NCBI RefSeq assembly: GCF_025526975.1
Contig: NW_026515685.1
Coordinates: 186,001-250,000, forward strand
Source: Fimicolochytrium jonesii
Taxonomy: Eukaryota
Direction of reading: 5' to 3'
Length of the DNA stretch: 64,000 nucleotides
Each line of letters begins with the position of its first letter. The stretch's first letter is position 1. Shown piece by piece: positions 15,664 to 50,271 of the stretch. The position numbers were made by a program, and so were the translations under genes. The notes below the pieces were generated by a model. The model saw nothing but the letters and a program-made list of their open reading frames with translations, was not told the DNA's origin and ran no database searches.

Positions 15664-18600
15664 TCAAGCAAGTCCCGCGACTACCCTCCGTAAGTCCGGG
15701 AGCATTCTATTATAGTCAGGGACTTTCCCATATCCCAGTTCTCCAACGGCCTTGACTTCCCACCGCGCCTCCGTTGCCCGTCTCCACAAGACGCACATTA
15801 TGATATTAGTCCGATCCCCCAACTCCTCAGGTGACGATTTGAAGTTGTACGAGCACAACTCCGTGGTCTCGGTCGTGCTTGTTTTGTTCCCCTCGACGAC
15901 AGGGGTTTCCAGGCGGACTGTGGGCGATTTGATGTCGGCGAGGGTGGAGCCTGCATAAGCTGACATGCAGAACACCAGCGCGCGAACGGTAGGGGGCAGC
16001 AGGCGGATGTTGACGGTGATGGTGTGGGTGCCGTGTCGGAGCCTATGGTCTACGATATCACCACTGTGTTTGATGGCGCCGGAGAGAGCAGTGGGCCTGC
16101 TGAAGTCAAGGTTCACAAGATGCTTTCCTAATGCGAGAATTAACATTAACGTTTTGGGGGGATCTTTGCAGGCCGTAGAGGAAAGAACTCCAGATGCCTA
16201 CCTTCAAAGTCGAAGGCCGAGCAGGTAGCATCGAGGAACCGCAAATCTTCCGCGTACCGCCATGTCTCCTTCATGAAAACCTTCCTTACGTCTGGGGGTG
16301 CACTATACGACTGCCCTTTGAGAAGGATCTTGGACACTCCTGATTTGTGAATCTTGGTGAAATCCATCCCCCGGGTGTGATACTTTTTGCGGAGGGAGTT
16401 GCGTATCGATTGGGACCATGCAGCGGTGAGTTGACCGGGCGAGGGGCACTGTTGTTGCATGATGGCGTAGTAGGCGGGCCATGTGGATACAGCGAGGATG
16501 TTTTTGGTGTGGCTCTGTAGGACGAACAGACTTAGCATGATGTACTCGCTCGAGTTCACGACCTAGTGTTTCCTCGATGTACCTGGAAAAGATCGACAAT
16601 CTTCTTGGGCGGCCTGCCGTAGAACTGGTCACTTGCATCCAAGAATCCGCTCGCCTTCGAGTCCGTGTCAAAGTAGCTCAAGAAGCAAACATGGAACATC
16701 ATCAGCCTCTTCGAGACGACCTGCGCGTCCCAGACCTTCTTCAGCAGCGCCATGTCGGGCTTGACGGAGCCCGACCCCTCCGTCGTCTCTGCGAGCTCCG
16801 GATACTTGTGACACACCCACAGTACCGCGCGGTCGGCCGACTCGGACAGAAATGCGTTGGCCACGCGCGGAGCTGCCCAGCGATGCCTGGATGAGAATGG
16901 AAGGACGGGGAGGAGGTTGCCGAGAGAAGGGGTGGCGCTCTTCATCCGAGCGGCTTCTGAATTGACAAACGCATCGATCCGGCTGTCTATTCGCTTCTGA
17001 AGGGACGGGTACCGTTCGATGAGGGCGGCCAGAAGGCGGTGAAGCAGGAAATAACCCTCAATGGCCCGGGCTGAAGCCGCGACGCCGTGATCGCAAAGCT
17101 GGACAATGAGCGTATTCATCATCTTGGGAAGGACGTCCAGTGCCATCGTCGCATCAAACACCCTGGTCCCGCGTTCCGGCGACATCTTGATGAGGAATGC
17201 TTGAATGTCCGGCAAGGCGCGCGTGAAGTGCTCGTGGGTAAGGTAGACGGGACACCACTCGGAGAAATCGGTGTTCCAAACGGATTTGCGGACCTTGTCT
17301 TCGTGGAATGCGCTCCGACTCAACATCTCGACTTCGCACGCGATGTAGTCGACGCATTTCGTTTTTGGATTGACGGTATAGGTTATTGGGAGACCCAGGA
17401 TGTCCTCTTCCCATGTCAGCTTGCTTGCGAAACATCTCATGCCGTCAGCAACACAGTTGACCTCCATTGCAAACGCGGATTTCCAGTCTGCCATCGTTGC
17501 GGCCGTGACGGATGCGTAGCGCGAACGCCCGGCGTATAGGGAAAACAAGTCCCGCCACACGCGCCCGTCCTCACAGACCAAATGCATGTGCCGGCATGTG
17601 GCGGAGAGGCTGAGCACATCGTTTCCCGTCAAACCGCATTGAGTCACGATGCGGAAGAGGAGCTCGTAAGGGAGCGTCGCGAACAGTCCTGCAGACAGCG
17701 GGTCTGAGGACGGGAAACAAACTGCGTGTTCCGCTTCTTGGTTTGCTAAAGATGTGACTGACGCAGGGCGGGCGGTGGACGGGGTGGAGACCACCAGCTG
17801 GCGAAGCTCAGTAAGCGACTGAGGGGGAGGTGCGATGGGGTCTGCCCTCTTCTTCTCCCTGATGACGAGGGTCCCCGGAGAGGCCTTGTGAATCTGCTTT
17901 GGTAATTGTGTTTTCTCCGCGGCGGCCGCTAGGACAGCCCACGAGCTAACGCCAGCATAAGTAGGCTTCGGCGCTTGAACACCCCGCGCTTTTGCAACAA
18001 ATCCGGTTCCACTGGCCTTGACCAAGGTCTTGGGGGACCCGTAGACCTTCTCCGCCATTCCGACACGCTTGGCACGACGAGACTGCACAACAGTCCATTC
18101 GTCCTCTTCCTGCTGATTTTCGGATGCCGGGGTGGAATGGGCAGAAGAAACAATTCGCGGACGACGAGAAACAGGTGCGCGGCGAACAACAAGCTTGGTG
18201 ACCTTGCTCATTTCCTCTTTCGTAGGGAAAGCTGGCCAGACCGCTCTCTTCCCATTTCCTTGACCGTGGCCGCAACGGGTGCATTCAAACATCCTCGCCG
18301 TCCGCACAGCATCACCTATTGTGCCGTGGTCGGTGGAATACATCAACGCAGTATCGAAAATGAACGCTTGCAGCTGCCTGAGGAGGCTGGCGACGGTGTA
18401 CGACCTGGACCAGCCTTCGTACGGATTGTTCTTGTTGACGTCGAGCATGTCAAGGCAAATTCTGTATCCTCCGAGGGACTGAACGACGTTGGCGTGCGGG
18501 ACCGGAGTGCAGAGGGTGACGCTAGGCGGGTCAAGGGGATACTGCTTGGGGAAGACAAGCACGAGGTGAAGGGTGAGGGACATGATGCCATCAGCGTCAC

Positions 18601-18778
18601 TGCCGTCGTCGGTCGAAACTACGGTGCTACGCAAGTTGACGTGCCATTCGTAGATGTTGTCTTCGAGTGGGGCGGCAGTGATGTTGGCGTCGACAGGAGA
18701 GGCGTTGATCTCGGCCAGATCGCGGAGCAGACGACGGGTGGCACTGGGGAGAGCAATTGCGTTGGTGGCAGACATCAC
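15664..18778 (-). CDS. E2/UBC + F-box + TerD-like fusion protein, exons 18778-16583, 16514-16202, 16127-15664 (~990 aa)
   Basis: UBC fold (RRLLRDL, EWHV, FPKQYPLDPP, HANV..RICLDML); F-box (LPYELLFRI..LSATCRHMHLVCEDGRVW); TerD-like end (LDATC, AIKHSGD, HTITVNIRLLP..LVFCMSAY). Two short in-frame GT-AG introns. Confidence 0.82.
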
Positions 18779-19587
18779 TGAACAGCGCCTGAGTGCTATA
18801 AGCTGGAGAAGCAGTAATGGGGGGCAGCGGATGAAATCCCGACTTGAATAGTAGAGAAGATGTCACACTGGAGCGACTGGAAGACCACGGTAGCGGGCGA
18901 CAGCCGGGGGGTCGGCCCGCGGCATGGTTTTATAAGCGACCCACTAATAATCTGCCTCAGTCTCTTCGACGAGCTATCTGGGCCAGGACGTCAGGAGTGC
19001 GAGGGGAAGCCGTGGAGAGTGGGGCAGGACGCATGGGGAAGCCGGATCGCACAGCTGTCGACTGCGCAGACGAACAGCGAGAGAGCGGGGAAGTGACAGA
19101 TCCACGCGTACTGTCGAAATCCGTCAGTTGGAAACGCCTTAACCCTCTATGGACTTTAATATAGACAATGGAATCCTTCTTTGCCGAGCTTCTGGCGGCG
19201 TTAATGTTAAATGGTACACAGTCAGCGATCCATCTCCGGGGCAGTTCCGTAGAATGCTAGGGGTTCGACTTCTCCAGGAGTTGACTTTTGCCGTGGTCGT
19301 ACCGTATTAGATCGTGCAGATGTGGGGCGGAGGGGGTCATTCTCTACCGGAGCGAACGACAGCAACGATGCCAACAGCGGTGAGGAGGTAACGTAGGTCG
19401 CTTGTATGCTGAATGGAATGCTTGCCAGATCCGGTATGCACACCAAGCCCAATGATGACCTGGGACACGGGTGCGGTGACGGGTGCGGTGCGGTGACGGG
19501 TAACTCCACCCACTGAAAAAGGAAGACTGGTTGACACTTGGAAAGGAGAACAAGCGGACACAAAACGCCTCCATTCTTCTATCCCTA

Positions 19588-21279: not shown

Positions 21280-23731
21280 CTATGCTGTTTGTCTCCGTAT
21301 CCACAAAGATTGTGGGTGAGCTTTTTGCCATCGTTTGTAGGCAGGCGTGTAGCGAAGTGCGGATTCAGGTTCCCAAGTAGGGTCAGGATAACCGAGCCAT
21401 TTGACTAGAAGATTTCGTACGGCGGGTTGCTCGTCGATGATGTCTTCTACAACCCATTCGGGTTGTCCGCGTTCTTGGATTGGTGGAGGAGGTTGTGGAA
21501 CTGCACGTTGTGGGTATTGCTCTTCGTGATGTGGTCGTAAAATATCGACGTAAAAGATGGGCCAGATGCCGCTGATCTTCGATGGTGATAAATCAAGTTC
21601 GTAGGTATCAGGAAGTGCTCCCAGTGCGATGATTTTGAATGGTCCGATCCACGTAGCTGAGTATCGAAGTCCTCTTCGAGCGTCTCCTTCTAGGTTGATT
21701 CCTTGTCGATTCAGATCGACGAGGTCGCCAATTTTGTATGCGATTGGCGTTCGACCTTTGTCGTGTTGACGTGCGAGTTGATCTCGTGATCTCTGAAGGT
21801 TTTCGCGTACGATACGGGCGATGTCCTCCTGCCCTTTCTTGAAGAGTTCAATTTCGTTTCGATCTACAGCTTGAAGTTTGAGTTCTTGTCCTTCGAGTGT
21901 TGGATTCCAACCTGGGAGGATTGGAGAACGTCCGAGATCTACTTCGAATTGTGATAAACCTGCATATTCCTCCCTCGGAGCGGTGTTGTATGCGAATTCG
22001 ATTAAAGGCAATAGTTTCTTCCAATTGCTTTTGTCGTAGTTGAGATATTGCTTCCAAAGCCTTTCCAGGGTTTGGATGGCTCGCTCAACTTTGCCGTCGG
22101 TTTGCTGGTGACAAGCCGTAGTGAATTCGTGTTTTACGCTGAGGAGAATATCAAATGCGAGGAAGAAGTCGGAAAGTGCGCGAGGTTCGCGATCCGTAAC
22201 GAAGACTTTTGGCGTACCGACATGTTTCCAAACATGATCTAGAAAGACTTGGGCTAGTTTGCGTCCAGTAATTGTTTTCCTGATCGGTGTCAGAATCACA
22301 CGTCCGGAAAGGTAATCAGAGCAGACGAGACAAGAGTTTGTTTCATCTACTTTGAAAATGTCGAATCCGATTGTGTGCCATCTTCCAAAAGGTATAGGAA
22401 GAGGTTGAGAAATCCGTATCGACGATGACCAGGTTTGAATTGTCAACAGGATTTGCAAGTTCCAACGTATTTGATGACGTCGGAGCGTACGGTAGGCCAG
22501 TAATAGTCCGCAAGAATTCTCGCAAGAGTCTTCGTAACACCGAGATGTCCTCCGGTGGCGAGTTCGTCATGGAATTTCCGCAAAATCTTCGGGCGAATGT
22601 CTTCAGGAACGTATAGACGTCCTTCGTGTCGTACTAATCCATTTTCGAACGTATAACGGAGTTCTTTTGAAGTTTTCTCGTGTTGAGGCTTTCGAGAGAT
22701 TCCATTGAGATAATCCGAATATGGATCTTCGCATAGCGCTTTTTTCCATCCTTCTTCTGAGCAGGTAGGTGAGTTTTGTGGAACGTGTGTTGTGGCATTG
22801 GAGGAAGGTTCGTTGACAAGCATGTTGCTGATCTGCGTATGCATGTCGAGGCGTCGTTGACAATCTACACACCGAGGCGCATAGATTGGCTTGCGGGAGA
22901 GCATGTCGGCGATATGATTCCATTGTCCAGGTAAATACTGGATGTCGAAATCATACTCTTGTAGCTTCTCCACCCAATTGGCTTGTCTTCTGCTCAAATG
23001 GGGTTGCGTTTGGATGATTTCGAGTCCCTTGGCATCGCTAAAACATCGGAAGTAATGACCGATGAGATATGGTCGATTGGCGACCAACATCTTGACAAGA
23101 GCTAATAACTCCTGTTCGTGCGTAGGATATCGAGTTTCTGCATCCTTCATCTTTCTAGAAAAGAAGACCATAGGCCGGAGCCGAGGTCACTTCTTCCATT
23201 GTCCGACGAGAGTAGGCAGATTCGTAGGGATCGTTTCATCGCCAGATGGTTGTCCAATCCAGCCAGCGATAGCGTAGCCTGATGAGTCGGTATAGATGTA
23301 AATTGGCTTGGTTTCATCGATTGTTGCTAGCGTAGGCACATTGATCAACGCTTCTTTCAACTTTTGAAATGCCTCTTGATGCTCAGGACCCCATCGAAAT
23401 TTGACTTTTAAAGATTGAATACTTGATAGGGGCAGACCGATGTCCGAATAACCTTGTACGAAGTCGAGGAAATAGTTCGTGAACCCGAGAAAGCTTTGAA
23501 CTCCTTTTGTTGACTTTGGAGTAGCCCAATCCTTGATAGCTTGGATTTTCGAGGGCGCGATGCGAACTCCATGTCTTCCGACAATATGTCCACACCATTC
23601 GAGTTCTTCTTTAGCCCATACGCACTTTGAAGGCTTGATGAAAAGGGCATGTTCTTCAAGTTTTTTCAGGATACGATCGACGTGTCCCTGATGTTCGGCT
23701 AAGGTCTTCGAGAAAATGAAAATGTTGTCCA
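21280..23731 (-). pseudogene. Element C pol (RT C-terminus, RNase H, integrase, chromodomain), with frameshifts
   Basis: YTDSSGYAI, EQELLAL, GHLGVTKT..YYWP..C..C, QTDGKVER, EWVVEDII..LLVKWLGYPDPTWEP. Confidence 0.9.
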
Positions 23732-29610: not shown

Positions 29611-30639
29611 ATGAGCGGCTTCGAGCTCATTATTGGTGTCTTGAAACTCCTTGATATATTTCTCAAGAGAGTCACCAAGCTTGAGATTGGATTACTTGAG
29701 CTCAATAGTATTACGCAAGTTGCGAGGATAAAAGGGAGCGACAAGAGCCGTTTCAAAAGCTGCCCGATTTGCGGGAGGTCCAGTGGCGTAAGTTGTATTG
29801 TACCACTCGAGAGCAGTACCGTTGAGGTAGGTAGTGAGCGTAGAGGCGTACTCTGCCATAGTAAAGGCTATGGCGTTGGCAGCTCCAGTGCTGTCTGTTC
29901 CAGCTGTTGCAGCCGGGACAGTGAGAGAGTCGAGAAAGTTGTGGTGAGACGTAACGAACTCTTCGATCTTTTTGGCAGCTTTGGCGCCATTGTATTCCAC
30001 AGGCTTGTTCTTGCGAGCGTCCATAAGAAGTTTGAAACGTTCGGCTCGTTGGCCGTCTTGCGTAACAGCACGCTGCTGACTAGCGAAAGCAGCTGCGACA
30101 GCTGCAACGAGAGCTTGAGTCTGTGCGTCCATTCTTGCTTGTGAACGAGGGTAAGGGCGACGTCCGATAGAGGGACGACGTTGACGAGGAATGTCTTGGT
30201 GATGCTAGCGGTAGGTGGTGCTACCATGTAATGTCAGGGGAACTTAGCAGTAGTCGGCAGAGGAAGCAGATGACGGAGCGAACTCTATGTTGTGTGAGAT
30301 GAAGTACTGACGAGTCTGTATTGTCTTATTGTAGGAAAGAGGACGCTAGGTCCGAAAGGAGAAGAAAAGAGTGAAGTCCCGCACGCGGAAGCGTGGCGTA
30401 AGCGGGAGGGGAGTCACGTGAGGAAATAAACTACAGGAACCCTAACCGGGGACTCGGGAGGATGAAACCTCCAACACCCCCACCCAAACTCACGAGTCTA
30501 TCTAAGTGAAAGATAAATCTAAACAATGAGTACAATGGTGCGGCCGTACGCAAAAAGCGGGCGGACGTCGGGTGAATAGCTATGACTAAAAATAAAAGAA
30601 ATGAAAGAGTAAAATGAAAGAAGAGGGAAACGCCGCGAG

Positions 30640-30646
30640 TATAAAA
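30640..30646 (+). promoter_or_regulatory. Putative TATA box (TATAAAA) for the antisense ORF of K
   Basis: Lies ~93 nt upstream of ATG 30739 and is conserved in all three K copies. Confidence 0.5.
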
Positions 30647-30738
30647 CAAGAGACAGCTGTCAGTCGCCCCAGAGAGATAAGATCAACGTTGACATACTCA
30701 ACTACCGTATCCCAGATGACCACACGATACGCGAAACA

Positions 30739-31392
30739 ATGGCGAACGGAGGCAAGAACGGCGGGAGTGGCAAGAAGAGCGGCGACGGCAAGAAGAAGCA
30801 AACAGCCCGTAAGTCGGGGACGCCAGCAGCCCCTCCAGCTGCACCCCCGCTGGGACCCTCATGACCGACGACGCGCTCTACGCGCGCATCGTCCGCAGCG
30901 TCTGCAAGCGACTCTTCGATGTCAAAAGCCCAAGTGAGAGAAGCTCTTCGATTGGCGACGGAGGTGGCGACGTTGAGGTACCGGAAGGATAACTATGAGA
31001 ACCTCGCGAAGCACCTGGCGTTTACGAAGGCGAAGCTGGATCGATCGAAGCGAAAGAAGGGGTCGTTCGAGGCATTGACGGAGGAGGCAGACTACGTTGG
31101 GTGTAAGGCAGTCTCGGAGTTGCAATATAAAGGAAAAGGCGGCATATCGAAAGAAAAGATGAAAGAGGCGAAGCGCCGCAGTGATGCGGCCGAGGGACGG
31201 GAGCGAGACAAGTTGATGAAGCGACTCATGTACTTGCGAAAGCACATGGATGATTTGTCTTCGAGTGATGATGGAGACGGTGACGGAAACCGCGGGGGAG
31301 GTGGTCCAGGGGGTCCGCCTGGTGAAGGCGGAGCCGGAGCCGGTGGAGCCTCCAGTGCCGGGGCAGCGGCGGCTATCACAGTGGCGGGTTAA
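30739..31392 (+). pseudogene. Antisense accessory ORF of Copia K (217 codons) with histone H3-tail motif KQTARKS; premature TGA at 30862
   Basis: MANGGKNGGSGKKSGDGKKKQTARKSGTPAAP... is in frame with ORF 30919-31392; the TGA codon is CGA in copy 2. Confidence 0.8.
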
Positions 31393-31450
31393 GGTGCCGA
31401 AGTCGTATATAGTGCCCAGAAGCCGTCCCGGTATGGGTGTTCCGTATGTC

Positions 31451-34400
31451 TCATTCGGACGTAGTCGTTGCCGGCCGTATATTGCTAGCGACACGCCCTT
31501 CTTGAATTGCTTGAATACTTTTTGTATGTGTCTCGGGAGGAAAGGGCTTTGTGAAGTAATCATCCAGTTGTTCCTGGGTTGCGGTGTCGAGGAGTACGAC
31601 GTCTTTCTTCGCCACGCCGTCACGTAGCTTGTGGTAGCGTATGTCGATGTGTTTGGAGCGTTGAGTAATAGCCGTGGAGTTGGCAATCTCGCGGGCGCTC
31701 TGATTGTCGATGTGGAGTGGCGTGGGGTCCTTGATGTTGCCGTATTCGTCGCCGAAGACCTCCGCGATGATCGAGCGGAGGCAGATGACCTCGTTGTAAC
31801 CGAGGGCTGCGGCAATATACTCAGCTTCCGTGGAGCTGAGAGCTACGCACTTCTGCTTGGTGCTTTTCCAGTAGATAAGCTGGCCGTTGAAGAAGCTGGT
31901 GATGCCCGCGGTAGATTTGCGGTCGTTGACATCGTCTGCGTAGGATGCGTCTGTATAGACGCGAAGTCCAGCTTGATCTGAATGCCCGGACTTGTAGGTA
32001 AGCTCGAAGGTGCGGGTACCTTTAAGGTAGCCGTGATGCGAAGTACATCATTCCAGTGGGCTTGAATAGGAGCTGAGACTTGACGTGCGACGAAGCCAAC
32101 GGCAGTTGAAATATCCCAGCGCCAGGTAATGGATGCCCACGTGAGGGCCCCCACTGCTTCCTGGTAGAGAAGCTTGTTAGGAAAAGGGGGGCTTGCGGAG
32201 GTTGGTCGGTTACGCGCAGAGACGGCACACGGCGTAAAGACCCGGGTAGCATTTTGTTGTCCAAATTGTTTGAGTAAACCGTCGATATGGGTAGCATTGC
32301 TGATTTTAAGTTGGTTCCCTGACGGCGAGAGCTGGTAATCGAAGACCAGACCCAGGCAGTTCTTGATGGGACCGAGATCCGTACAGTTGAAATGAGAACA
32401 TAGTTCACCTTTCACTTGTTTGGCGTGTACGGGAAAGCAGCAGGCGATGAAGTCGTCCACATAAATAAGGAGCATCTGGAGGGCGTCCAGAGTGCGCGTC
32501 GTGCTTGCGTAGCGATAGAAGACGCAAGGGCAGTTCTTTAACGGAGTAAAGCCGAGAGAACTGAGGGTTTCGCAAAGAGTACGGTACCAGAGAAGCGGAG
32601 ACTGCTTCAGACCGTATAGAGCCTTGTGTAAGAGGTATACCCAGTCTGCGCGCGGCTTTTGCGGATCTTTGTAGCCTTGAAATTGTTCAACATAGACGGG
32701 TCCGTCGATATCGCTGCGTTTGAACGCATTGAGGACGTCTAGTTGATGGATATCCATACCGAGAGAGATGGCAATGGAGAGGAAAAGGCTAAGAACTGAC
32801 ATGGGTAGGGTTGGAGCGTAGGTGTCGTGATAATCAATACCCTTGGAATGACGAAAACCTTGAACTACACCGCGGCCCTTGAATTTCTTGAAAGTACCGT
32901 TTGGATTGAAGATTTGACAAAGTACCCAAGTACTACCGAGTATGCGCTGATTGCGCGGACGGGGTACGAGCTCCCAAGTCCCGTTATCAACTAGAGCCTG
33001 GAACTCTTTATCAGCTGCGAGCTTGAAGTCAGCTGATTGAGGGGAGGCCATCGCTTGTCGCCAGGTCATAGTGACGGATTGAGGCGTGTCTTCAGTACGC
33101 GCGTTGAAGGCGTTCGAGAAGGCTTCAATGGTTCGGGCGTTGAAAGCGGCTGGATGAGACTCCCAGATATCCAACTCTTCAGTCTCAATGAGATCAGAGC
33201 GTGGTTGCCAGGTAGGGGTAGTAAAACCAACCCACTTGACGAGGTATTCCTTTCGGACGTTCTTGCCGCGGCGCTGATGTTCAGAAAGGATGTGTTCCAA
33301 AGGGAACTCCTCTTGCGAGGTGGGAGCATCTTCTAGAAGATCTAGGAGAGCAGGATCTTGACGAAGGTGCTCAGGGAGTCCAGTAGATTCGTCGAAACAA
33401 ACATCACGTGAAACGGCGACAGTGTCGCGAACTGGATCCCAGACATAGTAACCTTTGGTGCCTTGTTGGTGAGCATAGCCCACTAGGTACGTCTTGGTAG
33501 TACGATTTGCCATCTTGTCCCAGCCCTTGGGTGGAACGACAGTGTACGTGAGACATCCGAGCTTGCGCCGATGCGCGATGCTCGGGCGGCGACCGGTAAG
33601 GAATTCGGAGCAAGATTTAGCATCCGGGGATGCAATTGAATGCGGGTAGAGGTTGTGCAGGTAAAAGACAGCTTCCAGGATGTATGGCCAGAGCTTGCGG
33701 GGTAGGTGAGTGTCCGCGAAGATGGCGCGTTGTAGTATTGCACTTTGAACTGCGCATGAAATTGATAATATTTCAACGCTGATTATACGCCTAGAATCTT
33801 TGGCAAGCGAATGAAATCACCTTTATATGACAACGTCAAAATACCGTCAAAACTTCCGACAATAAATCGACACACTCGCGTTCCCAACACTCTGACAATT
33901 ACCAAATACAACTACCTTTACCGAAACCTTGCTTCACAGCGACGTTTTGTCCTTGGATATGACTGACATGCGAAAAATGTAGGCGTAGGAGAGGATCACA
34001 CACATGAAAGCACCCCCGACCCGATCCTCAACCAACCAGAAGCTCCCACGCCGCCCGAAACGCTGAAGAAATCACCTGCGAAACGAGAAAACCAATTTTC
34101 GGTGGCCGTATACGCCAAACGTTGCAGAAAACCCCGAGAAAAGATTAGCGATAAGACCGTATCAGTGCCGAAATTGCGAATGGAAAAAGGAAAAACTACA
34201 TAGACGGCTGCAGGAAAAGAGAAAAAGACCCCAAAGTAGCTAATCCTCTAGACACGACTAGTAGAGAGTTTGGACTTCGACAAAATCCTGTAGCCTAGAA
34301 AAATCCATATAAAAACCCGCTTGTTTCCCCCAGACCTTTGTACGATACGCAGAACACAGATCCCGATCAACAACAGAGCTTTCAACTTCTCTACTCCCGA

Positions 34401-36829
34401 CGACTTCTTTCAGTTTCAGATAGACTTCAAGGCGCGCTCATAGCCCCGGAGAGCTTAGATAAGACGACCTCGAGTGTCGCGACTTGTACTTTGCTGACGT
34501 CGCCAAGGACTTGATAGTTCAGGAATCTTGTAAGAAGAGCTGAGAGTGAGATTGGATAACCCCATTGTTTTGTTTTGTAGTCAACCCCGCAGATATTCCC
34601 GAATTCGTATTTTGTACCCCTACCCGTAATTCCCGACCCCGTATTAGAAGAGGATCCTTTCAAAGCACCTGGATTTTAAGGTGGCAAGACGACGCCCTCG
34701 CTCGAGATCTCTTCTTGTGCTATTGAGAGACCGGCAGCTTATTTTTCCCGACACCCAACCGTAACCCCGTTTTCGACAGACCCTTGCTTCTGCCGGCCAC
34801 CACCACAGCGTACGCGGTCCAGCAACGTCCGATCGAGGCGGTCTGCTTTTCCGTTTTGTTGACTAGAATACGCAACAGTAGACTCATGGGTAATCCCGTT
34901 GTCGTGTAGGTACGACGTGAGCTCGCCAGTGTATTCTCCTCCCCTATCCGTACATAGGATCTTGAGGGAGACGCCAGTTTGATTCTTGAGCCACTTATGA
35001 AAGATCATAAACCTTGCGGTGATGGTGGATGCCTCCTTGTCCTTGATGGAGTAGGTACGGGCGAAATCGCAGCCGTCGTCGAGGAACACGAGACCGTAGC
35101 GCTCTCCGTCGATGCCGTGGATCCGAAATGGACCTTGTAAATCGCTGTGAATCAGCTTGCCGGGTTTGTGTGGCGGGGATGTCAATTTAGGTTAGGTAAG
35201 GCGGGTAGCTTTGCCGAAAGCGCATGGATTGCAGCGTGCGCCAGAGTCTGGCGTAGCCCCCACTGAAGACCAATCCTCTCCTATCTTAGGCATAACCTGG
35301 AGAATGTGGTTTCCAGGGTGTCCAAGACGTTGATGCAGAAATTAGGGGGTTATGGAAGCGACCAGTGCATGTGCATTGGGCTTGTAGGTAGTAACCCGTC
35401 CTTCTAAGTAGTATGCGTCGCCTTCGCGCATCCTCATCGCGAGTAAGTGTCGGTCGGTATTGAACGTGACGACGTCGGTGGGGTGAAAGGAGACGGTAAC
35501 GCCGTTATCAGTGCATTTAGCAACAGATATAAGCGGCTGGGCAAGACTAGGAACCAATAACACGTCGCGAAGAGCGAGAACGTTGCCGCCGGACGTAGGT
35601 TGGATAAGTTCGGTACCCTTCTTTTGAGAGGTAATGGTAGTCGAATCCGCGAGTCCAATAAGGCGTTGGTAGTCTTGGAGAGAAGATTGATCTAGATCCT
35701 CGATATAAGGGGTCATATAATCTGTACAACCAGAATCCACGTTTGCCTTGAAGAGGCGGACGTCGTGGTTGGCTGGTTGGACTTGAACGTGCATGGCATA
35801 AGCCATGGAGGCTGCAGCGGGTGCGTCCTGCTTAGTTTGCGCGTTCTTGTCCATGATATCCTTGACAGCTTTGTAAGTAAAGCAGTTTTCTGACTTGTGG
35901 CCTTCCCGTTGGCAGTATTTTGACTGGGGAGGTTTCTTGGGTGCGTCAGAAGACGAGGATTGGGTAGAGGAGGAGCCTCTAGAGCCGCCAGTCTTGGATT
36001 TGTTCTTCTTCGTCTGAGGTAGAGGGGAAGTAACGTGGGCAGCGGATGCGCCCGACTGAGGCGTACTCGGGGTCTTCTCGTTGAACTGGGCGGCTATACG
36101 AATCGCGGCTTCTTGAGAAGGACTAAGTCTATCATTGTACTGAGCATGAGCAGTGATCAGGGTACTGTGATTATTAGGAAGGGCTTGAAGGAAGTCGGCA
36201 CAGACCACGTATTCCGGGAGCCCGGGGAGTTGTCCAGCAAAAGGTTGAACTGGGCGACGAATTCGGTTAAACCTTGATGGTTAATTGACTTGGGCTTCGG
36301 AGCGCGCAGTCTGTGAAGAACTTGCGGCGGATGAGTCCGGGGAATGAAGCGCCGTAACATCGCGGAGCGTAATCCGAGTTGCGGGCGCAGTCCATAGGTG
36401 TCTTGAATATCGTGCCATGAAATTATGCAGAAGCGCTCGTTTTCAGGAAAGCTTTTTTACATATGGCGTGGTTGCGTCTTTCCACTCTGCAATAGTAGCA
36501 GAAAGTTCCTCCTTCCTCTTCTTCTCATCCACAAATCCACCAGGCATTTTGTAAGGCGGGGTAGGTGTTGGTTCACTGCGTAAGTCGGCATGACGGGCTA
36601 CGCCTTGATTGAGCGGAGTAGGTGAGTCAATGCTGGAGCGCTGATTAATAGATTCAGAACTCTTAACAGCTTGTTGTTGAACTTTCTTTCCTCCTCCTCT
36701 AGTAGCCGCAGGTAGGGGTCCCAGGAAAGCTCCTCCTTGGGACCGCATGTGGTGAGCGGAGGGCTTGCCGGCTGTCACTGCAGCTGCGGAGCCCTTCTGA
36801 GGTTGGGTTGTTGAATCCTTAGGTGGCAT
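31451..36829 (-). pseudogene. Copia K1 gag-pol with an integrase-associated chromodomain (~33160-33312); stops, frameshifts and an insertion in integrase
   Basis: YCQREGHKSENC, LHQRLGHP, HSDLQGP, TDRGGEY, YVDD, YTDASYA, EAEYIA motifs. Confidence 0.9.
33731..34807. mobile_element. Probable solo LTR (~1.08 kb, unknown family) inserted in K1 integrase
   Basis: TGTAGT..ACCACA termini, 4-bp duplication GCGT; splits RTLLDRVR|AIFADTHLP. Confidence 0.75.
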
Positions 36830-37411
36830 GGTGCTTTCTAAGAGAGCGGTGGCTGGAGCGAGTTCTTTATCCTGGAACGTCCGCTAGTTGCGGGCAAAGC
36901 CAGGGCTCATAACCTCTTAGCAGTAGTTGGCAGAGGATGCAGATGACTGAGCGAACTCTATGTTGTGTGAGCTGTAGTACTGTGAAGTATGTATTGTCTT
37001 ATTGTAGAAAAGAGGACGCTAGGTCCGAAAGGAGAAGAAAAGAGTGAAGTCCCGCACGCGGAAGCGTGGCGTAAGCGGGAGGGGAGTTACGTGAGGAAAT
37101 AAACTACAGGAACCCTAACCGGGGACTCGGGAGGATGATACCTCCAACACCCCCACCCAAACTCACGAGTCTATCTAAGTGAAAGATAAATCTAAACAAT
37201 GAGTACAAGGGTGCGGCCGTACGCAAAAAGCGGGCGGACGTCGGGTGAATAGCTATGACTAAAAATAAAAGAAATGAAAGAGTAAAATGAAAGAAGAGGG
37301 GAACGCCGCGAGTATAAAACAAGAGACAGCTGTCAGTCGCCCCAGAGAGGTAATACCAACGTTGACATACTCAATTACCGTATCCCAGACGACCACACGA
37401 TACGCAAAACA

Positions 37412-40400
37412 ATGGCCAACGGAGGCAAGAACGGCGGGAGTGGCAAGAAGAGCGGCGACGGCAAGAAGAAGCAAACGGCCCGTAAGTCGGGGACGCCAGC
37501 AGCCCCTCCAGCTGCACCCCCGCCGGGACCCTCACGACCGACGACGCGCTCTACGCGCGCATCGTCCGCAGCGTCTGCAAGCGACTCTTCGATGTCGAAA
37601 GCCCGAGTGAGAGAAGCTCGTCGATAGGCGATGGAGGTGGTGTTATGATCTCGACGACGGGGGCGGAAGCGAAGTAGAGAAGACAGGGCGAGTGTGATAG
37701 GCGACAAGAGACTGTATTGGCGAAACAAGAAACAAGGACTAGAACAGGAGATGAGAAGAACTGGTGTTGATCTGCTGGGGAGGAAGGGAATGGACGAAGA
37801 GTGGCCGGCTATTTATAGATAGGCAACCCAGCAGATCAGAGAACAACAACAACAAGAGGGGACTGGAGGGCGACAGCTATGCTCCTAGAGCGTGCGTGGC
37901 GAGCGTAGAGAGCATTGCTACAGCTGCTGGCTATGGGGAAGCAGTGGGGGGTGTGGAGAAGCCGAGGAGGGTTTGGCGAAATGAGAGGAGAGAGGAGGAG
38001 TGGCGATATTGCAAGAGGATTGGCGAAATGAGAGGAGAGAGGGGGAGTGGCATTGACATTGACATTGACACTGACATTGACACTGACATTGACATTGACA
38101 TTGGCGTTTGACATTTGGCGGTTGACATTGGCGGCTGTCAGTAGGTAAGCTTATGGTATGGGCGCGTTGTCCATTGGCAGCTGTCAGTAGGTAAGCTTAT
38201 GGTATGGGCGCGTCGTCCATAACATCACCCCTCTCTTTAGCGGCCGTGGCGGCGGCGTCGAGTTTGGTGTGGCCGCAGAGGAGGCGCTACGGGGACAGAG
38301 GAAGGCTTGTTGGGGTACGCGCTGTGGAAGTCCTGGAGGAGTGTGTCGGTATGGGTGAGGTGTTCCACGGGCTCCCAGGTGTTCTCGGAGTCAGGCCAGC
38401 CCTGCCATTTGACCAAGTACTAAAGGCGACGACAATGGATGCGAGAGTCAAGGATGGCTTCGACAACCCACTCTTCTTGACCCTCAACGGTCTCTGGGGG
38501 CGCAGGTTCGGGTTCGGGTCGTTCGGGGATGGTGAAGCGGGGTTCGAGGAGCGAGACATGGAAGACATCCTGGATTTTGTACGTAGGCGGCAGCTTGAGC
38601 CGGTAGGCAACGGGATTGATTTTTTCAACGATGGGGAATGGCCCAATCTTGCGATGGTCGAGTTTCTGAGAGGGCCGGGTTGTCTGGAGGTTTTTGCAGA
38701 GGAGCCAGACGTGGTCGCCAGGCTTGAAGTCCGGTCCAGGAATTCGTTTAGCGTCGGCGTAGCGCTTCATTTGATCTTGGGCTTCCTTGAGCTCGAGGGC
38801 GAGCTGTTTATGGCCTTCCCTGATTTGTTTAGCGTGGGCTTCAGCGGCGGGGTTGACGGATTCGGAGCTAGCAGAGGCCGCGAAACTGAAGCGGGGGTGG
38901 AGACCCTTGTTGGCGTAGAAGGGGGTGGTCTGGGAGGCGGACTGGTGGGTGTTGTTGTAGGCGAACTCGGCAGACGACAGAAGCTGTTTCCAGTTGTCCT
39001 GTTGGTGGTTGCAAAAGCATCGGAGATACTGCTCCAGGATCTGGTTGGTGCGTTCCGTCTGGCCATCGCTCTGGGGGTGGAAGGCCGAGGAGAGGTTGGC
39101 TTTTGCCCCAAGGAGTTCGAGAAGTCGACGCCAGAACCGGGACTTAAACTGGGGTCCTCGGTCAGAGATGACGTCGTCGGGGAGGCCGTGGAGACGGATA
39201 ATGTTGTGGAAGACTAGGTCGGCGGTGGATTCGGCGGATTCTGACTCGCTGCAGGCGATGAAGTGGGCCATCTTGGTGAGGCGACAGTTGACGTTCAGGA
39301 TGGAGTCGTACCCGTCCACGGGAGGCAGACCGGTGATAAAGTCCAGGGACCAAGATCCCCAAGGGCGGGTAGGGATACTGTTGGGCTGAAGTAGGCCATA
39401 TGGTTTTTGTCAACTGGATTTCGCTTGGCTACAAGTATCGCAGGACTTGACGTAGGCCTTGACGAAGCGCCACTGGTTGGGCCACCAGTAGTTGCGGGAG
39501 GCAAGTTCGAGCGTCTTGGACATCCCAAAGTGGCCAGCCAGGGATGTATTGTGCATGTCGTGGCAGACTTCAGCTCGGAGCTCGTTGGTGGGGACATAGA
39601 CCAGGTTATCGTGCAGCAGGATCCCATCTTCATCTGAGAACCGCTTGATACGATCTTGGGTTTCCTCGGTCCATTGGGCGAGGGGTATCTTGAGCTTTTC
39701 GCGAAGGGTCTTAGCGAGGGGATCAGAGGCCTGGGCGGCCTTAATCTTGTCAAGCAGCGTGGTATCCATGGGTGTGAGGTAGGCCGCGGCGAGTCGAAGG
39801 CGTTTGGGAGTCAAAATTGTGGTTGCCTGGGAGCGGAACGCTTCTTCCCCCTTTTTTAGCTCATGTTCGGAGCGTCGGGAGAGGGCATCGGCTTGGTGCT
39901 GCTGGGAACCGGGGCGATAGGTAATGACAAAGTCAAAATCCGAGAAGAATATCGACCAGCGGGCTTGGCGGCGGTTCAGGGTGCAGGTGGTCATGAAGTA
40001 CTGAAGGTTTTTATGGTCGGAGTAAACGGTGATCTTGTGACGGGCGCCAATGAGATGGTGTCGCCACTGGGCAAAGGAGTCTTGGATGGCCAGAAGTTCC
40101 TTGTCGTAGAGCTCGTAGTTGATCTCTTCGGCCGTGAATTTGCGAGAGTGGAAGGACCACGGGGTGGAGCTGATTGTCCTGGTCAGGTTGGAGGAGAACT
40201 GCGCCAAGAGCGAAGTCGGAGGTGTCAGTTTCGACGACGAAGGGCTTCTCTGGGTCAGGGTGAGCAAGGATGGGGGCGGTGGTGAATGCTTTCTTCAGGT
40301 TCTCGAAGGCGGTGTTTGCGGCGGGTGTCCAGGCGTACGGGATGTCTTTCCGGGTCAGGGCTGTGAGCGGGGTAGCGATCTTGGAATAACCTTGGATGAA

Positions 40401-43400
40401 TCGGCGATAGAAGTTGGCAAAGCCGAGGAAGCGCTGGACGCCTTTGACATTCTTGGGAGGTTCCCAATCCTGTGATGGCAGCGATCTTCTTGGGGTCCAT
40501 CTGGATGCCTTTCTCGGAGATGATGAAGCTAGGAACTCGACAGATTCGCGGTTGAATTCGCACTTCTCGGGTTTGGCGTACAACCCATGCTGGCGGAGGC
40601 GGGACAAGACTTCGTGGACGTGCTTGGGGTGATCTTAGGGGTTCTTGGAGAATATCAGGATACCATCAAGGTAGACGACAACAAACACATCGAGAATGTC
40701 GCGGAAGATGTCGTTCATCAGGTACTGGAAAACGCCAGGAGCATTGCTGAGTCCAAAGGGCATGACATTGTATTCGAATAGGCCGTAGCGGCAGCGGAAG
40801 GCGGTCTTCCATTCATCGCCCAGGCGCATGCGTAAGAGGTTGTAAGCGCCGCACAGGTCGATCTTGGTGAGACGGCGGGCACCGCGCAAAGGATCCATGA
40901 TACCGTTGATCAGGGGCAGGGGGTAGCGATTCTTCACCGTGATGCTGTTCAGGCCTCAATAATCCACGCAGAGGCGGAGAGAACCGTCCTTTTTCTTCAC
41001 GAATAAGACTGGCGCACCGGCAGGGGACTTTGAGGGTTTGATGAATCCTTTGGCGAGGTTTTCTTCGAGGTATTCGCAGAGTGCCTTCATATCTGGTTCG
41101 CTGAGGCTGTAGATCGGGCTGAAAGGTGGCTGCTTGCCTTCCTCCAGATCGATTGGACAGTCGTAGGGCCGGTGCTCGGGGAGAGTGTCAGCATTTCTCT
41201 TTTTGAAAACGTCGGCGAAGTCTTGATACTCGGGGGGCAGGAAGTCTTTGATGTCTTTCTCGGGTGTCGGGGGGTTACTAGGGCTAGGCAAGGCCGGGAG
41301 ATCGGGTTTCGCAGGGTTGGCGTAGGCGACAAAGACCTGGTCATGCCTTGCTGCGACCCGGAAGGCTGGGGCGGAGATGAACGAGACTCGGAGCGGCGTG
41401 GGAGCCGGTTCTGGGGTGCTGGAGCGAGATACCTTGGGTACTGGAATCGACCATGTTTTGTCGACGGGGACTTCATCCTGGGGGATGCGGATCAAGGGCT
41501 CGGGGGTTCTGGCAGGTGCTGGGCTCGGGGGTGCTGGGTAGTAGTCCCAATTCGCGAATTCATGGTACTGACAGTCGCAACGGAAACCGACCGAAAGGTT
41601 CTTGAACTCAAGGTTAATGTCGTGGAGGCGGAGCCAGGGGAGACCAAGGAGGATTGGAGCATGGGGTGATTTGGTGACATGGAAGACGAGTTCTTCGAAG
41701 TGGTCGTCAACCCACATGCCTACTGGTTGGGTGTGATGGGTGATTGGCCCAGCAGAGCTGGGTTGACCGTCAACGAGTTCGATCGTCAGTGGACGCTGAT
41801 GCGGGACTAGGGCGATGCGGTGTTTGCGGGCAAAGTCTCTGTCGATGAAGCAGGACAGGGCACCGTTGCCGATCATGGCTGAGGTAGGTATCGGGGCGCG
41901 GCTGGATGATACCATGATGGTAACGGGGTAGTTGAAGGGTTCGACGGGACCCAGCGCAAGCATGGCGCGGGGGTTAATTTCGGAGTTTTCGACATGGGCA
42001 GCGGCTAGGAGGGTTGTGTCGGCTATAACGGAGTCGGGAACCAGGGGGGTGGCCTCTCCTGTTGCAGGAGCTGCGAGGTTAGGAGGCCCGGGGCGGTGTG
42101 TGTTGTCCAGTCGCTGGGGCTTTACTGCGGCTGGACTTTGGGAAAACCCTGTTCGGTGGAGGGTTCTTTGATGTCGACGTTGGCGGCACGGGTGGTGGTC
42201 TTGTTCTTGACGGGGCAGACTTTTGCAATGTGCCCCGCGCCACCCCAGTAAAGGCCAGAGGTTGTTGGAAATGCGGCGTTGGCGTTCCTGAAGGGCTCAG
42301 AGGGCCGCGGGGACGAGCGGCGTCAATCTGCATAGGCTCGCTGTGGTCGACAGTGGTGGTAGTAGTAAACGAGGTGTGGGGAACCGGGAAGGTCTGGCGG
42401 CTTCTGTTTCGCTGCAGGCGGCGCTCAAACAGCCGGTTATCGCACTGGATAGCCTGCTCCATCACCACATCAATGGTGGCCGCAGGGGGCATTGTGAGCA
42501 TCAGGTCTTTGACGTCTTCTTTGAGGCCACGGCGGAAGGTAGCAATCAGGGCCTGGTCGTTCCAGGAGACATCGCATTGTAGCTGGCGGAACTCAGCGAC
42601 GTACTCGGTTGCTGCACGGGTTTGGCGAAGGTTCTGGAGCTTGTTTTCAGAGGTGCGGACCCTGTCGCTGTCTCCGAAGACCGATTGCATCTGACTGATG
42701 AAGATATTGAAGTCCTGAAGGCTGTGATCTTAACGTTCGACTAGGGGCGCCATCCGGGCTTGCGCAGTGCCGGTGAGGTAGGTGCCAATAGTTTGGATCT
42801 TGATGATGTCGCTGGGGTAGCGGTCGGGCTGGAGAGCAAACATCAACCGGATGTTGTTCAACCACCCACGGAATTTGCTGCGGGTACCATCAAACTTCTC
42901 GGGCGAGCTGATTCTTGGCTCCAGAGCAGGGTTGGCGACTTGGGGACGGGTGAACGTATCAGCTTGAACCTGGGCGGCGATGCTCTGGGCAGCTTGTGCG
43001 TCGGCTTGGGCTTGCGCTAGGTTGGCCTGCAAGTTGGCGTTTTGGCTTTGCAAGGCGGCGATGGCTTGGCACATATCGTTCCATTGCTTCGCAGTGAAAG
43101 GTACGGATTCGGGTTGGGACATGGCGAAAAAGGTTTGTCGGATGCAGGGCTGGACAGGTTCTGAACTTCGCAGTGTTAGAGCAGATCAAACTGTTATGAT
43201 CTCGACGACGGGGGCGGAAGCGAAGTAGAGAAAACAGGGCGAGTGTGACAGGCGACAAGAGATTGTATTGGCGAAACAAGAAACAAGGACTAGAACAGGA
43301 GATGAGAAGAACTGGTGTTGATCTGCTGGGGAGGAAGGGAATGGACGAAGAGAGGCCGGCTATTTATAGATAGGCAACCCAGCACATCAGAGAACAACAA

Positions 43401-44159
43401 CAACAAGAGGGGACTGGAGGGCGACAGCTATGCTCCTAGAGCGTGCGTGGCGAGCGTAGAGAGCATTGCTACAGCTGCTGGCTATGGGGAAGCAGTGGGG
43501 GGTGTGGAGAAGCCGAGGGGGGATTGGCGAAATGAGAGGAGAGAGGAGGAGTGGCGATATTGCAAGAGGATTGGCAAAATGAGAGGAGAGAGGGGGAGTG
43601 GAATTGACATTGACATTGACACTGACATTGACACTGACATTGACATTGACATTGGTGTTTGACGTTTGGCGGTTGACATTGGCGGCTGTCAGTAGGTAAG
43701 CTTATGGTATGGGCGCGTCGTCCATAACAGGTGGCAACGTTGAGGTACCGGAAGGATAACCATGAGAACCTCGCGAAGCACCTGGCGTTTACGAAGGCGA
43801 AGCTGGATCGATCGAAGCGAAAGAAGGGGTCATTCGAGGCATTGACGGAGGAGGCAGACTACGTTGGGAGTAAGGCAGTCTCGGAGTTGCGATATAAAGG
43901 AAAAGGCGGCATATCAAAAAAAAAGATGAAAGAGGCGAAGCGCCGCAGTGATGCGGCCGAGAGACGGGAGCGAGACAAGTTGATGAAGCGACTCATGTAC
44001 TTGCGAAAGCACATGGATGATTCGTCTTCGAGTGATGATGGAGACGGTGACAGAACTGGCAGGGGAGGTGGTCCAGGGGGTCCGCCTGGTGAAGGCGGAG
44101 CCGGAGCCGGTGGAGCCTCCAGTGCCGGGGCAGCGGCGGCTATCACAGTGGCGGGTTAA
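37412..44159 (+). pseudogene. Antisense H3-mimic ORF of K2 (37412-37640 + 43735-44159), split by B1
   Basis: KQTARKS at 37469-37489; TTG>TAG at 37625; the frame resumes after the GGTGG TSD. Confidence 0.8.
37641..43729 (-). mobile_element. Full-length defective Ty3/Gypsy chromovirus B1; LTRs 37641-38224 and 43192-43729
   Basis: TSD GGTGG on both sides; gag-PR-RT-RH-IN-chromodomain remnants; (GACATT)n tract in the LTR. Confidence 0.95.
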
Positions 44160-45886: not shown

Positions 45887-46965
45887 TGTAGTATTGCACT
45901 TCGAACTGCGCATGAAATCGATAATATTTCAACGCCAAATATACGCCTAGAATCTTCGGCAAGCGAATGAAATCACCTTTAGATGACAACGTCAAAATGC
46001 CGTCAAAACTTCCGACAATAAATCGACACACTCGCGTTCCCAACACTCCGACAATTACCAAATACAAGTACCTTTACCAAAACCTTGCTTCACAGCGACA
46101 TTTTGTCCTCGGATATGACTGACATGCGAAAAATGTAGGCGTAGGAGAGGATCTCACACATGAAAGCACCCCCGACCCGATTCTCAACCAACCAGAAGCT
46201 CCCACGCCGCCCGAAACGCTGAAGAAATCACCTGCGAAACGAGAAAACCAATTTCCGGTGGCCGTATACGCCAAACGTTGCAGAAAACCCCAAGAAAAGA
46301 TTAGCAATAAGACCGTATCAGTGCCAAAATTGCGAATGGAAAAAGGAAAAACTACATAGACGGCTGAGGAAAAGAGAAAAAGACCCCGAAGTAGCTAATC
46401 CTCTAGAGACGACTAGTAGAGAGTTTGGACTTCCACAAAATCCCGTAGCCTAGAAAAATCCATATAAAAACCCGCTTGTTTCCCCCAGACCTTTGTACGA
46501 TACGCAGAACACAGATCCCGATCAACAACAGAGCTTTCTACTTCTCTACTCCCGACGACTTCTTTCAGTTTCAGATAGACTTTCAAGGCGCGCTCATAGC
46601 CCCGGAGAGCTTAGATAAGACGACCTCGAGTGTCGCGACTTGTACTTTGCTGACGTCGCCAAGGACTTGATAGTTCAGGAATCTTGTAAGAAGAGCTGAG
46701 AGTGAGATTGGATAACCCCATTGTTTTGTTTTGTAGTCAACCCCGCAGATATTCCCGAATTCGTATTTTGTACCCCTACCCGTAATTCCCGATCCCGTAT
46801 TAGAAGAAGGACTCCTTTCAAAGCACCTGGATTTTAAGGTGGCAAGACGACGCCCTCGCTCGAGATCTCTTCTTGTGCTATTGAGAGACCGGCAGCTTAT
46901 TTTTCCCGACACCCAACCGTAACCCCGTGTTCGACAGACCCTCGCTTCTGCCGGCCACCACCACA
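45887..46965. mobile_element. Second copy of the ~1.08-kb probable solo LTR, at the same site in K2 integrase
   Basis: Near-identical to 33731-34807, with the same junctions. Confidence 0.75.
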
Positions 46966-48283: not shown

Positions 48284-48804
48284 TGTTATGAATGGGCGGA
48301 GCCGATGGAAATAGAGGCGACTTGTGGTGCAGGTTGTTGACAGGTAATGGTATTCAGACCGAAACAAGAACTAGAACAAGACTAGGAAGAACTGGTGTTG
48401 ATCTGCTGGGGGATCAGGAAGTGGGGAGCTCAGGGGAGGCGGCTATTTATGTTTTTCTGGGAAGGCTGGGGAAGCAGAAGGGTACGGAATGAGAGGGAAG
48501 CCAAGAGAAGCGCCAAGGGTGGGGAAGTATGGAAACAGAAGACTGGGGATGGGGTGGCTACGCTGAGGCTGTGGGCGGGTACGTGGGGAAGTATGGAGAA
48601 GGGTTTGTAAGCGCCCGAGTGTTGGGAGGTGTGGCTACGTGCGGCTGCGTGGAGAAATGAAGGCAGTGGCAGGTGTGGGGTAGCGCGGCTGCGTGCGGCT
48701 GCGAGTTTTGGCAGATGTCAGGTTTTGACAGGGAATTGACATTGACTGACTGTTGGGATGCTGTCATGAGGTAAGCGCATGGTATGGACGCGTCGTCCAT
48801 AACA
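48284..48804 (-). mobile_element. Solo LTR of family A in K2 gag
   Basis: Matches the A LTRs; TSD GACTA. Confidence 0.95.
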
Positions 48805-49602
48805 GACTAAGTCTATCATTGTACTGAGCATGAGCAGTGATCAGGGTACTGTGATTATTAGGAAGGGCTTGAAGGAAGTCGGCACAGACCACGTATTCCG
48901 GGAGCCCGGGGAGTTGTCCAGCAAAAGGTTGAACTGGGCGACGAATTCGGTTAAACCTTGATGGTTAATTGACTTGGGCTTCGGAGCGCGCAGTCTGTGA
49001 AGAACTTGCGGCGGATGAGTCCGGGGAATGAAGCGCCGTAACATCGCGGAGCGTAATCCGAGTTGCGGGCGCAGTCCATAGGTGTCTTGAATATCGTGCC
49101 ATGAAATTATGCAGAAGCGCTCGTTTTCAGGAAAGCTTTTTTACATATGGCGTGGTTGCGTCTTTCCACTCTGCAATAGTAGCAGAAAGTTCCTCCTTCC
49201 TCTTCTTCTCATCCACAAATCCACCAGGCATTTTGTAAGGCGGGGTAGGTGTTGGTTCACTGCGTAAGTCGGCATGACGGGCTACGCCTTGATTAAGCGG
49301 AGTAGGTGAGTCAATGCCAGAGCGCTGATTAATAGATTCAGAACTCTTAACAGCGTGTTGTTGAACTTTCTTTCCTCCTCCTCTAGTAGCCGCAGGTAGG
49401 GGTCCCAGGAGAGCTCCTCCTTGGGACCGCATGTGGTGAGCGGAGGGCTTGCCGGCTGTCACTGCAGCTGCGGAGCCCTTCTGAGGTTGGGTTGTTGAAT
49501 CCTTAGGTGGCATGGTGCTTTCTAAGAGAGCGGTGGCTGGAGACCGTGAGTTCTTTATCCTGGAACGTCCGCTAGTTGCGGGCGAAGCCAGGGCTCATAA
49601 CC

Positions 49603-50271
49603 TCTTAGCAGTAGTCGGCAGAGGAAGCAGATGACTGAGCGAACTCTATGTTGTGTGAGATGTACTACTGTGAAGTATGTATTGTCTTATTGTAGAAAAG
49701 AGGACGCTAGGTCCGAAAGGAGAAGAAAAGAGTGAAGTCCCGCACGCGGAAGCGTGGCGTAAGCGGGAGGGGAGTCACGTGAGGAAATAAACTACAGGAA
49801 CCCTAAGCGGGGACTCAGGAGGATGATACCTCCAACACCCCCACCCAAACTCACAAGTCTATCTAAGTGAAAGATAAATCTAAACAATGAGTACAATGGT
49901 GCGGCCGTACGCAAAAAGCGGGCGGACGTCGGGTGAATAGCTATGACTAAAAATAAAAGAAATGAAAGAGTAAAATGAAAGAAGAGGCCGTGAGTTCTTT
50001 ATCCTGGAACGTCCGCTAGTTGCGGGCAAAGCCAGGGCTCATAACCTCTTAGCAGTAGTCGGCAGAGGAAGCAGATGACTGAGCGAACTCTATGTTGTGT
50101 GAGATGTAGTACTGTGAAGTATGTATTGTCTTGTTGTAGAAAAGAGGATGCTAGGTCCAAAAGGGGAAGAAAAGAGTGAAGTCCCGCACGCGGAAAAGCG
50201 GGAGGGAGTCACGTGAGGAAATAAACTACGGGAACCCTAAGCGGGGACTCAGGAGGATGATACCTCCAACA
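49603..50271 (-). mobile_element. TRIM-like mini K unit (LTR-PBS-short leader/3'UTR-PPT-LTR)
   Basis: LTRs 49603-49837 and 50047-50271 flank only ~210 bp, which retain PBS and PPT. Confidence 0.85.

Follow-up and report, generated by a model that had tools for sequence, protein, structure and literature searches.

Antisense to and behind pol in the K element – a Copia-type LTR retrotransposon of the fungus Fimicolochytrium jonesii – lies a frame of 217 codons whose predicted product bears, close to its N-terminus, seven residues (KQTARKS) identical to K4–S10 of histone H3. The frame is very probably a real accessory gene; that its tail is a mimic of H3K9 is plausible, the odds being about even. 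On the reading that we tentatively prefer, and to which we give a little less than an even chance, the tail of this antisense protein, which is predicted to be disordered, would stand in for H3K9 as a decoy and so blunt silencing by the host. A broader proposal, that a Copia lineage pairs an integrase chromodomain that reads H3K9me with a separate antisense mimic of the H3K9 tail, thereby escaping silencing in the heterochromatin that it targets, is more doubtful and stands clearly below even.

The K element and its antisense frame

The stretch of DNA analysed (hereafter the window, 64,000 nucleotides) falls into two parts: fungal host genes, with Spa2/GIT domains, an F-box and a kinase, occupy 1–19 kb, and nested LTR elements fill 19500–64000. 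For a host UBC protein the two best Atlas clusters consist mainly of Ascomycota (score 0.93). One host frame (16556–18862, minus strand) joins a ubiquitin-conjugating domain to a following F-box-like domain, and the Gypsy elements of the nest include two with chromodomain integrases (21283–22566 and 53493–54983).

The domains of the K element, read along the minus strand, run rve integrase core, SH3_retrovirus, chromodomain and RVT_2 (E 6e-42), which is the Copia order; RVT_2, an integrase placed before the reverse transcriptase (RT), LTRs, a primer site and a polypurine tract together mark it as Ty1/Copia. In copy 1 the 3′ part of pol (31451–33816, minus strand) comprises the integrase SH3-like domain, the chromodomain, the RT and the RNase H region, with a 1-bp frameshift near 32032, while the gag, protease-region and integrase-core pieces (34739–36883, minus strand) are broken. 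The chromodomain (33127–33324, minus strand) scores below the Pfam cut-off (18.6 bits against 25.1; E 0.0018). In the PDB it finds 50 sequences at E≤0.1; almost all belong to chromodomain proteins, CBX/CDY/HP1 among them, and CBX8 is the best at 4.3e-5. At the positions of the aromatic cage, as given for HP1 in PMC8303541, it has F, W and F.

The 3′ LTR of copy 1 (30243–30476, minus strand) is 234 bp long, has the form TG...AAG and is preceded by the polypurine tract. A second LTR (36916–37149, minus strand), common to copies 1 and 2, is followed by the primer site GGTTATGAGCCC, and a third (49604–49837, minus strand) lies between copies 2 and 3, together with a shorter one at 50048–50271. The K LTRs terminate in AAG rather than CA before GGTTATGAGCCC (36903–36916, 49590–49604), a primer site that resembles the internal initiator-tRNA site of Ty5/copia. 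It differs from the primer sites given for FunCo1 and GalEa.

The three copies are arranged head-to-tail, with neighbours sharing 234-bp LTRs. Moreover, the 1,079-bp insertion that splits the integrase of copy 1 (33729–34807) recurs in copy 2 (45887–46965, 97.1% identical). With LTRs and an insertion in common, the copies are a damaged element repeated in tandem at one place and not three independent insertions. The earlier note had reported the frame from all three copies: they do carry it, but as members of one array they are not independent witnesses. They diverge by 2.6–3.6% in the 3′ region and by 0.9–2.0% in the 5′ region. The insertion itself has TG...CA ends with a short ACGC repeat, and may be a solo LTR whose family is otherwise absent from the window. 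Several further rearrangements can be seen: copy 2 lacks some 600 bp, the chromodomain region among them (junction near 45720), and has a solo LTR in its gag (48284–48804, target duplication GACTA); an LTR plus primer-site segment (49540–50318) is duplicated between copies 2 and 3; and copy 3 is truncated at about 52375.

The antisense frame sits on the plus strand between pol and the 3′ LTR, and in copy 1 extends over 217 codons from 30739 to 31392, as the earlier note had described. The signals reported with it are likewise present in all three copies: a TATAAAA box (30640–30646 in copy 1, and at 37313 and 50367), an ATG in the context aaacaATGG (30739, 37412 and 50466) and KQTARKS (30796–30816, with the other copies starting at 37469 and 50523), the copies of the motif differing by ACA/ACG only. 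TATAAAA occurs ten times in the window, and three of these heptamers are the ones that stand 99 nt upstream of an antisense ATG; the ORF would be transcribed from this candidate promoter. A 39-nt intron may interrupt the leader (30677–30715; CAG acceptor), although this is a prediction only, and the donor is GT in copies 2 and 3 and AT in copy 1. Candidate introns of host genes, picked by pattern, are as short as 41–45 nt.

Every antisense ORF is broken, leaving an intact frame in none of the three copies. Copy 1 has an internal stop at codon 42, and the protein was therefore read from it with X at that position. In copy 2 the 5′ part (37412–37640, motif 37469–37489) has a stop at codon 72 and is parted from the 3′ part (43730–44159) by a Gypsy insertion (37641–43729, target duplication GGTGG). 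Copy 3 (50466 to approximately 51118, motif 50523–50543) shares the stop at codon 42. These lesions were already on record; what had been overlooked is a 1-bp deletion near 50971 that puts the C-terminal third of copy 3 out of frame.

Likeness of the tail to histone H3

The tail was compared with H3 as encoded at genomic loci. Identity is complete over K4–S10 (7/7) and reaches 9/13 over K4–P16; A15 and P16 are also matched, and A1–T3 and T11–K14 are not, the ORF reading G, T, P and A after S10 where H3 has T11, G12, G13 and K14. When the ORF was shuffled 200,000 times, 76 of the resulting sequences held an exact match of at least seven residues to H3 1–36 (3.8e-4 per shuffled ORF), and the analytic chance of a match covering the R-K-S of K9 or K27 is 2e-4. 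Across six frames the motif is expected at a rate of 1–1.5e-9 per position.

Scanning prokaryote genomes for the motif (two codon families) returned at least 121 matches. Of the 121 matches listed, 13 fall in H3 genes and the other 108 in unrelated sequences. Nine of these 108 agree with H3 1–16 at two or more further residues, so the identities at A15 and P16 add little. The 13 H3 loci (L041, L077, L079, L087, L094, L098, L105, L106, L111, L132, L143, L154 and L156) are eukaryote-type genes in prokaryote assemblies, and are probably contaminating contigs. ARKSG is also present in a ribosomal L15 tail, and a phmmer search of the N-terminal tail against the PDB did not retrieve H3. A seven-residue match to H3 is, in sum, unlikely for any one gene and occasionally expected across a very large scan. 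Capture of the tail from an H3 gene was considered and set aside: the sole hint, one CGT among 16 Arg codons, is too weak. Residues 1–21 may also resemble fungal H2A.Z-type tails.

These figures bear directly upon the most serious competitor to the decoy, which is that the gene is real and, as with other extra ORFs in antisense on LTR elements, encodes a small, basic, nuclear protein in whose Lys/Gly-rich tail – a tail for nucleic acid or for import – KQTARKS is a coincidence. We put this somewhat short of even. The net charge over residues 1–41 is +7, as such a tail would have it; H3 identity is wanting on both sides of the motif, at A1–T3 and T11–K14; non-H3 matches to the motif are common in large collections; and a chance of 2–4e-4 per ORF has to be multiplied by the many orphan ORFs met when some 250,000 windows are scanned. 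Nor is the motif conserved better than its surroundings. Specific conservation of KQTARKS had been proposed as a check, and in the three copies a single change was seen in its 21 nt where about one was predicted. Coincidence is harder to reconcile with the placement of the match: seven contiguous residues, centred on K9, at the N-terminus, in a segment predicted to be disordered, and in an element that has a chromodomain of its own. It is this placement that raises the odds of a mimic; they stay near even because evidence of conservation is absent.

The antisense frame as a probable gene

Both the decoy and the coincidence presuppose a gene. The alternative, that there is none – that a G-rich, T-poor strand is open by virtue of its composition and that the apparent homologues are low-complexity look-alikes – we consider improbable. 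It gains from the fact that the opposite strand is open as well: a stop-free frame of 306 codons (30922–31842, minus strand), without a Pfam match, overlies the RNase H region and most of the antisense ORF, and is probably a shadow frame. Against an explanation by composition, however, stand Markov simulations of the same DNA, which yielded an ATG frame of 217 codons in 0–0.3% of 3,000 runs under each of six settings (P≤0.003), as do the clean TATA/ATG start and the modular layout of the protein.

The pattern of substitution is neutral, as it would be if there were no gene. Copies of the frame vary at 32 sites in about 645 nt, 9 of them synonymous and 23 non-synonymous or stop. The dN/dS<1 that was to be looked for did not emerge from the three K copies, where selection was not detectable (pN/pS 0.85, p=0.40), three decayed copies being a test without power. 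Control regions of the same copies behave alike: pN/pS is 0.78 for RT and 0.48 for RNase H, both non-significant, and 0.55 for the +1 frame.

The predicted protein has a disordered N-terminal segment, a helical core and an acidic/Gly C-terminal part. AlphaFold2, given an alignment of three sequences, returned a model of mean pLDDT 63 and pTM 0.45, with low-confidence tails and helices at residues 63–81, 86–103, 110–129 and 138–175; pLDDT is about 76–91 in most of the helix blocks and 60 in one. Residues 1–60, at pLDDT below 55 and devoid of secondary structure, are predicted to be disordered. An import-type motif, KRKK, occupies residues 104–107. Only one of the 217 residues is Cys, and no cysteine-cluster family (DUF3716-like, Zn2Cys6) was found in Pfam at E≤10. 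Searches of Pfam, PDB sequences and the Atlas gave no informative match, and fold searches gave generic helical bundles only (none at E≤0.001 by Foldseek; best Z 6.9, rmsd 3.6 over 116 aligned residues), results that are also those to be expected were there no gene.

Candidate homologues bear upon the same issue. A search of 1.84 billion representatives produced two proteins at E≤0.001, of which P0001, a low-complexity repeat, was dropped as a homologue; the other, P0002, was matched at E 2e-6, and a profile search then recovered P0003. Profile searches, each scoring some 8,000 candidates, found P0002 and P0003 alone, and a single-protein search of 4,837 candidates 119–380 aa long found nothing at E≤1. 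The ORF, P0002 and P0003 have the same parts in the same order, namely the block A.L.[YH]RKD..E.L..H, a helix of charged residues, an acidic stretch and a tail of Gly/Pro, and P0002 modelled with P0003 alone has helices at corresponding places (pTM 0.24). Stripped of the low-complexity tails the match to P0002 falls to 23.4 bits (E 6.6), so that homology of the core is non-significant at database size, a point on the side of there being no gene. Identities, furthermore, are not significantly concentrated in the columns that P0002 and P0003 conserve (13/34 versus 13/47, p=0.22). On the other side, pairwise shuffling against the P0002 core gives z 9.4, and a P0002+P0003 profile run on the window's 1,313 frames places the three K copies at the top, at E 3e-5 to 1.4e-4 (the frame after them is at 1.9), although the way in which P0002 was discovered makes this ranking a non-independent one. 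We treat both proteins, which are metagenomic singletons encoded on contigs of 2,249 bp (P0002) and 1,303 bp (P0003), as weak candidate homologues.

The two proteins begin at about query residue 60, past the region of the motif, and show nothing of the N-terminus, either as truncated calls or because they have no such tail. DNA of homologues was sought in viral and prokaryote scans and not found. A pattern scan of metagenomes gave 36 loci and no relative: 22 of them are accounted for in the main by a dehydrogenase-like motif or by shadow frames, and the remaining 14 have a stop or an ambiguity inside the match. These loci gave no tblastn match to K pol, and no relative of K pol was found in viral contigs.

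The proposed decoy and its parallels

Were the tail a decoy, the antisense mRNA would be transcribed from the TATA box, the protein would enter the nucleus by way of KRKK, and the helical core would oligomerise or bind nucleic acid so as to present the tail. The tail would then decoy HP1-type readers or act as a slow pseudo-substrate, both of which we consider likelier than an efficient titration of the writer, and an element inserting into heterochromatin would be relieved from silencing. HP1-type chromodomains bind about Q5–S10, reading the N-terminal side of K9, and require the lysine to be methylated. It is that side of K9 that the ORF matches, and the T11/G12 side that it misses; a decoy aimed at readers is favoured on this account.

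The writers differ in what they demand. Neurospora DIM-5 requires H3 R8–G12 (PMC3248561); in the ORF R8, K9 and S10 are matched and T11 and G12 are replaced by G and T, substitutions outside the assays of that study. With two of five required residues missed, and with its match on the half that DIM-5 disregards, it is doubtful that the tail would be an efficient substrate of DIM-5. According to PMC8303541, SUV39H2 likewise reads R8–G12, and SUV39H1 favours what precedes the lysine (K4, T6 and R8); the ORF has what is listed there for SUV39H1, namely R at −1, K/R at −5, T/S/A/Y at −3 and R/K/S/T at +1. The anti-silencing role envisaged in the earlier note keeps its footing in the identity to H3 and in a likely gene, and its version in which the writer is titrated is weakened by the mismatch at T11 and G12. 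The same mismatch, which a methylating enzyme would have to tolerate, tells against the idea that the methylated tail masks or tethers the element's own integrase chromodomain and so regulates integration into heterochromatin, an idea that we hold to be very unlikely even though one element encodes both partners and the cage residues are intact, since no like frame of 100 codons shows up on the plus strand behind the pol of the window's chromovirus-type elements.

Bench-tested precedent for mimicry of H3K9 comes from the ARKSAP of SARS-CoV-2 ORF8, which raised H3K9me3 (bioRxiv 10.1101/2021.11.10.468057). The K ORF has the ARKS core in common with it, has seven contiguous identities as against six in ARKSAP, and is transposon-borne. 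By analogy with ORF8, the effect of a decoy on silencing may go in either direction. Among cellular proteins CDC73, with ARKT, is an H3K9 mimic (PMC11703355, in extract), and G9a and SETDB1 are named with it. Accessory proteins proposed to counter silencing include the VANC of Arabidopsis VANDAL transposons (PMC10398659, in extract); VANC proteins are sequence-specific and belong to DNA transposons, whereas the K ORF, known from sequence alone, is proposed to work by histone mimicry.

As to the position of the gene, additional ORFs placed in antisense behind pol and ahead of the 3′ LTR (aORF-3R) are described from maize Grande (gene23), rice RIRE2, Silene Retand and bean PvRetro13, and the function of such antisense extra genes is given as unknown (PMC7264820, in extract). 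The K ORF is like them in position, orientation, presence in every copy (three of three, all broken and not independent), a candidate promoter of its own and an orphan product; GENE23 of Grande is, in addition, nuclear. It is unlike them in residing in a fungal Copia, in giving no Pfam match to SMC or Transposase_28, and in its histone-like motif, which the extracts of PMC7264820 do not mention for any aORF-3R. Fungal LTR elements offer a parallel in brtn, an antisense gene behind pol of the Boty-like elements of Botrytis and Sclerotinia (Zhao 2011, cited in the extracts of PMC7264820 and PMC8365987); Boty is Gypsy, and it is by description that we set it apart. The earlier note knew of no Copia element with such a gene. 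Full-text searches of a literature from which subscription journals are largely missing showed no transposon-encoded histone mimic in the titles and abstract openings of the papers listed; the antisense layout itself is known. What is possibly new is the function.

A few viruses and cellular proteins are established histone mimics, and anti-silencing proteins have been established in some DNA transposons of plants. An H3K9 mimic in a retrotransposon, if true, would give antisense extra genes a concrete mechanism, testable with a peptide of 15 residues, and would help to explain how elements that target heterochromatin remain active. Should the motif be a chance match, what is left would be modest: a fungal Copia that has a chromodomain and, in antisense, an orphan gene. 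As of 2009 chromodomain Copia elements were described from diatom CoDi-A alone (PMC2774666, in extract), with which K shares the Copia domain order and a chromodomain at the C-terminus of the integrase; the hosts are a diatom and a fungus, and the two are likened by domain layout alone. One survey of fungi ties chromodomains to Gypsy (PMC3248453, in extract), and the word does not appear in the extracts of a second (PMC5445492).

A last observation concerns the silencing that a decoy would counter. When C>T changes were polarised by the majority of the three copies (2,052 sites), they fell at 29 of 360 CpG sites and at 2 of 227 CpA, 8 of 269 CpC and 6 of 272 CpT. This bias suggests CpG methylation rather than RIP and, being expected of a methylated and silenced element, counts in favour of the decoy.
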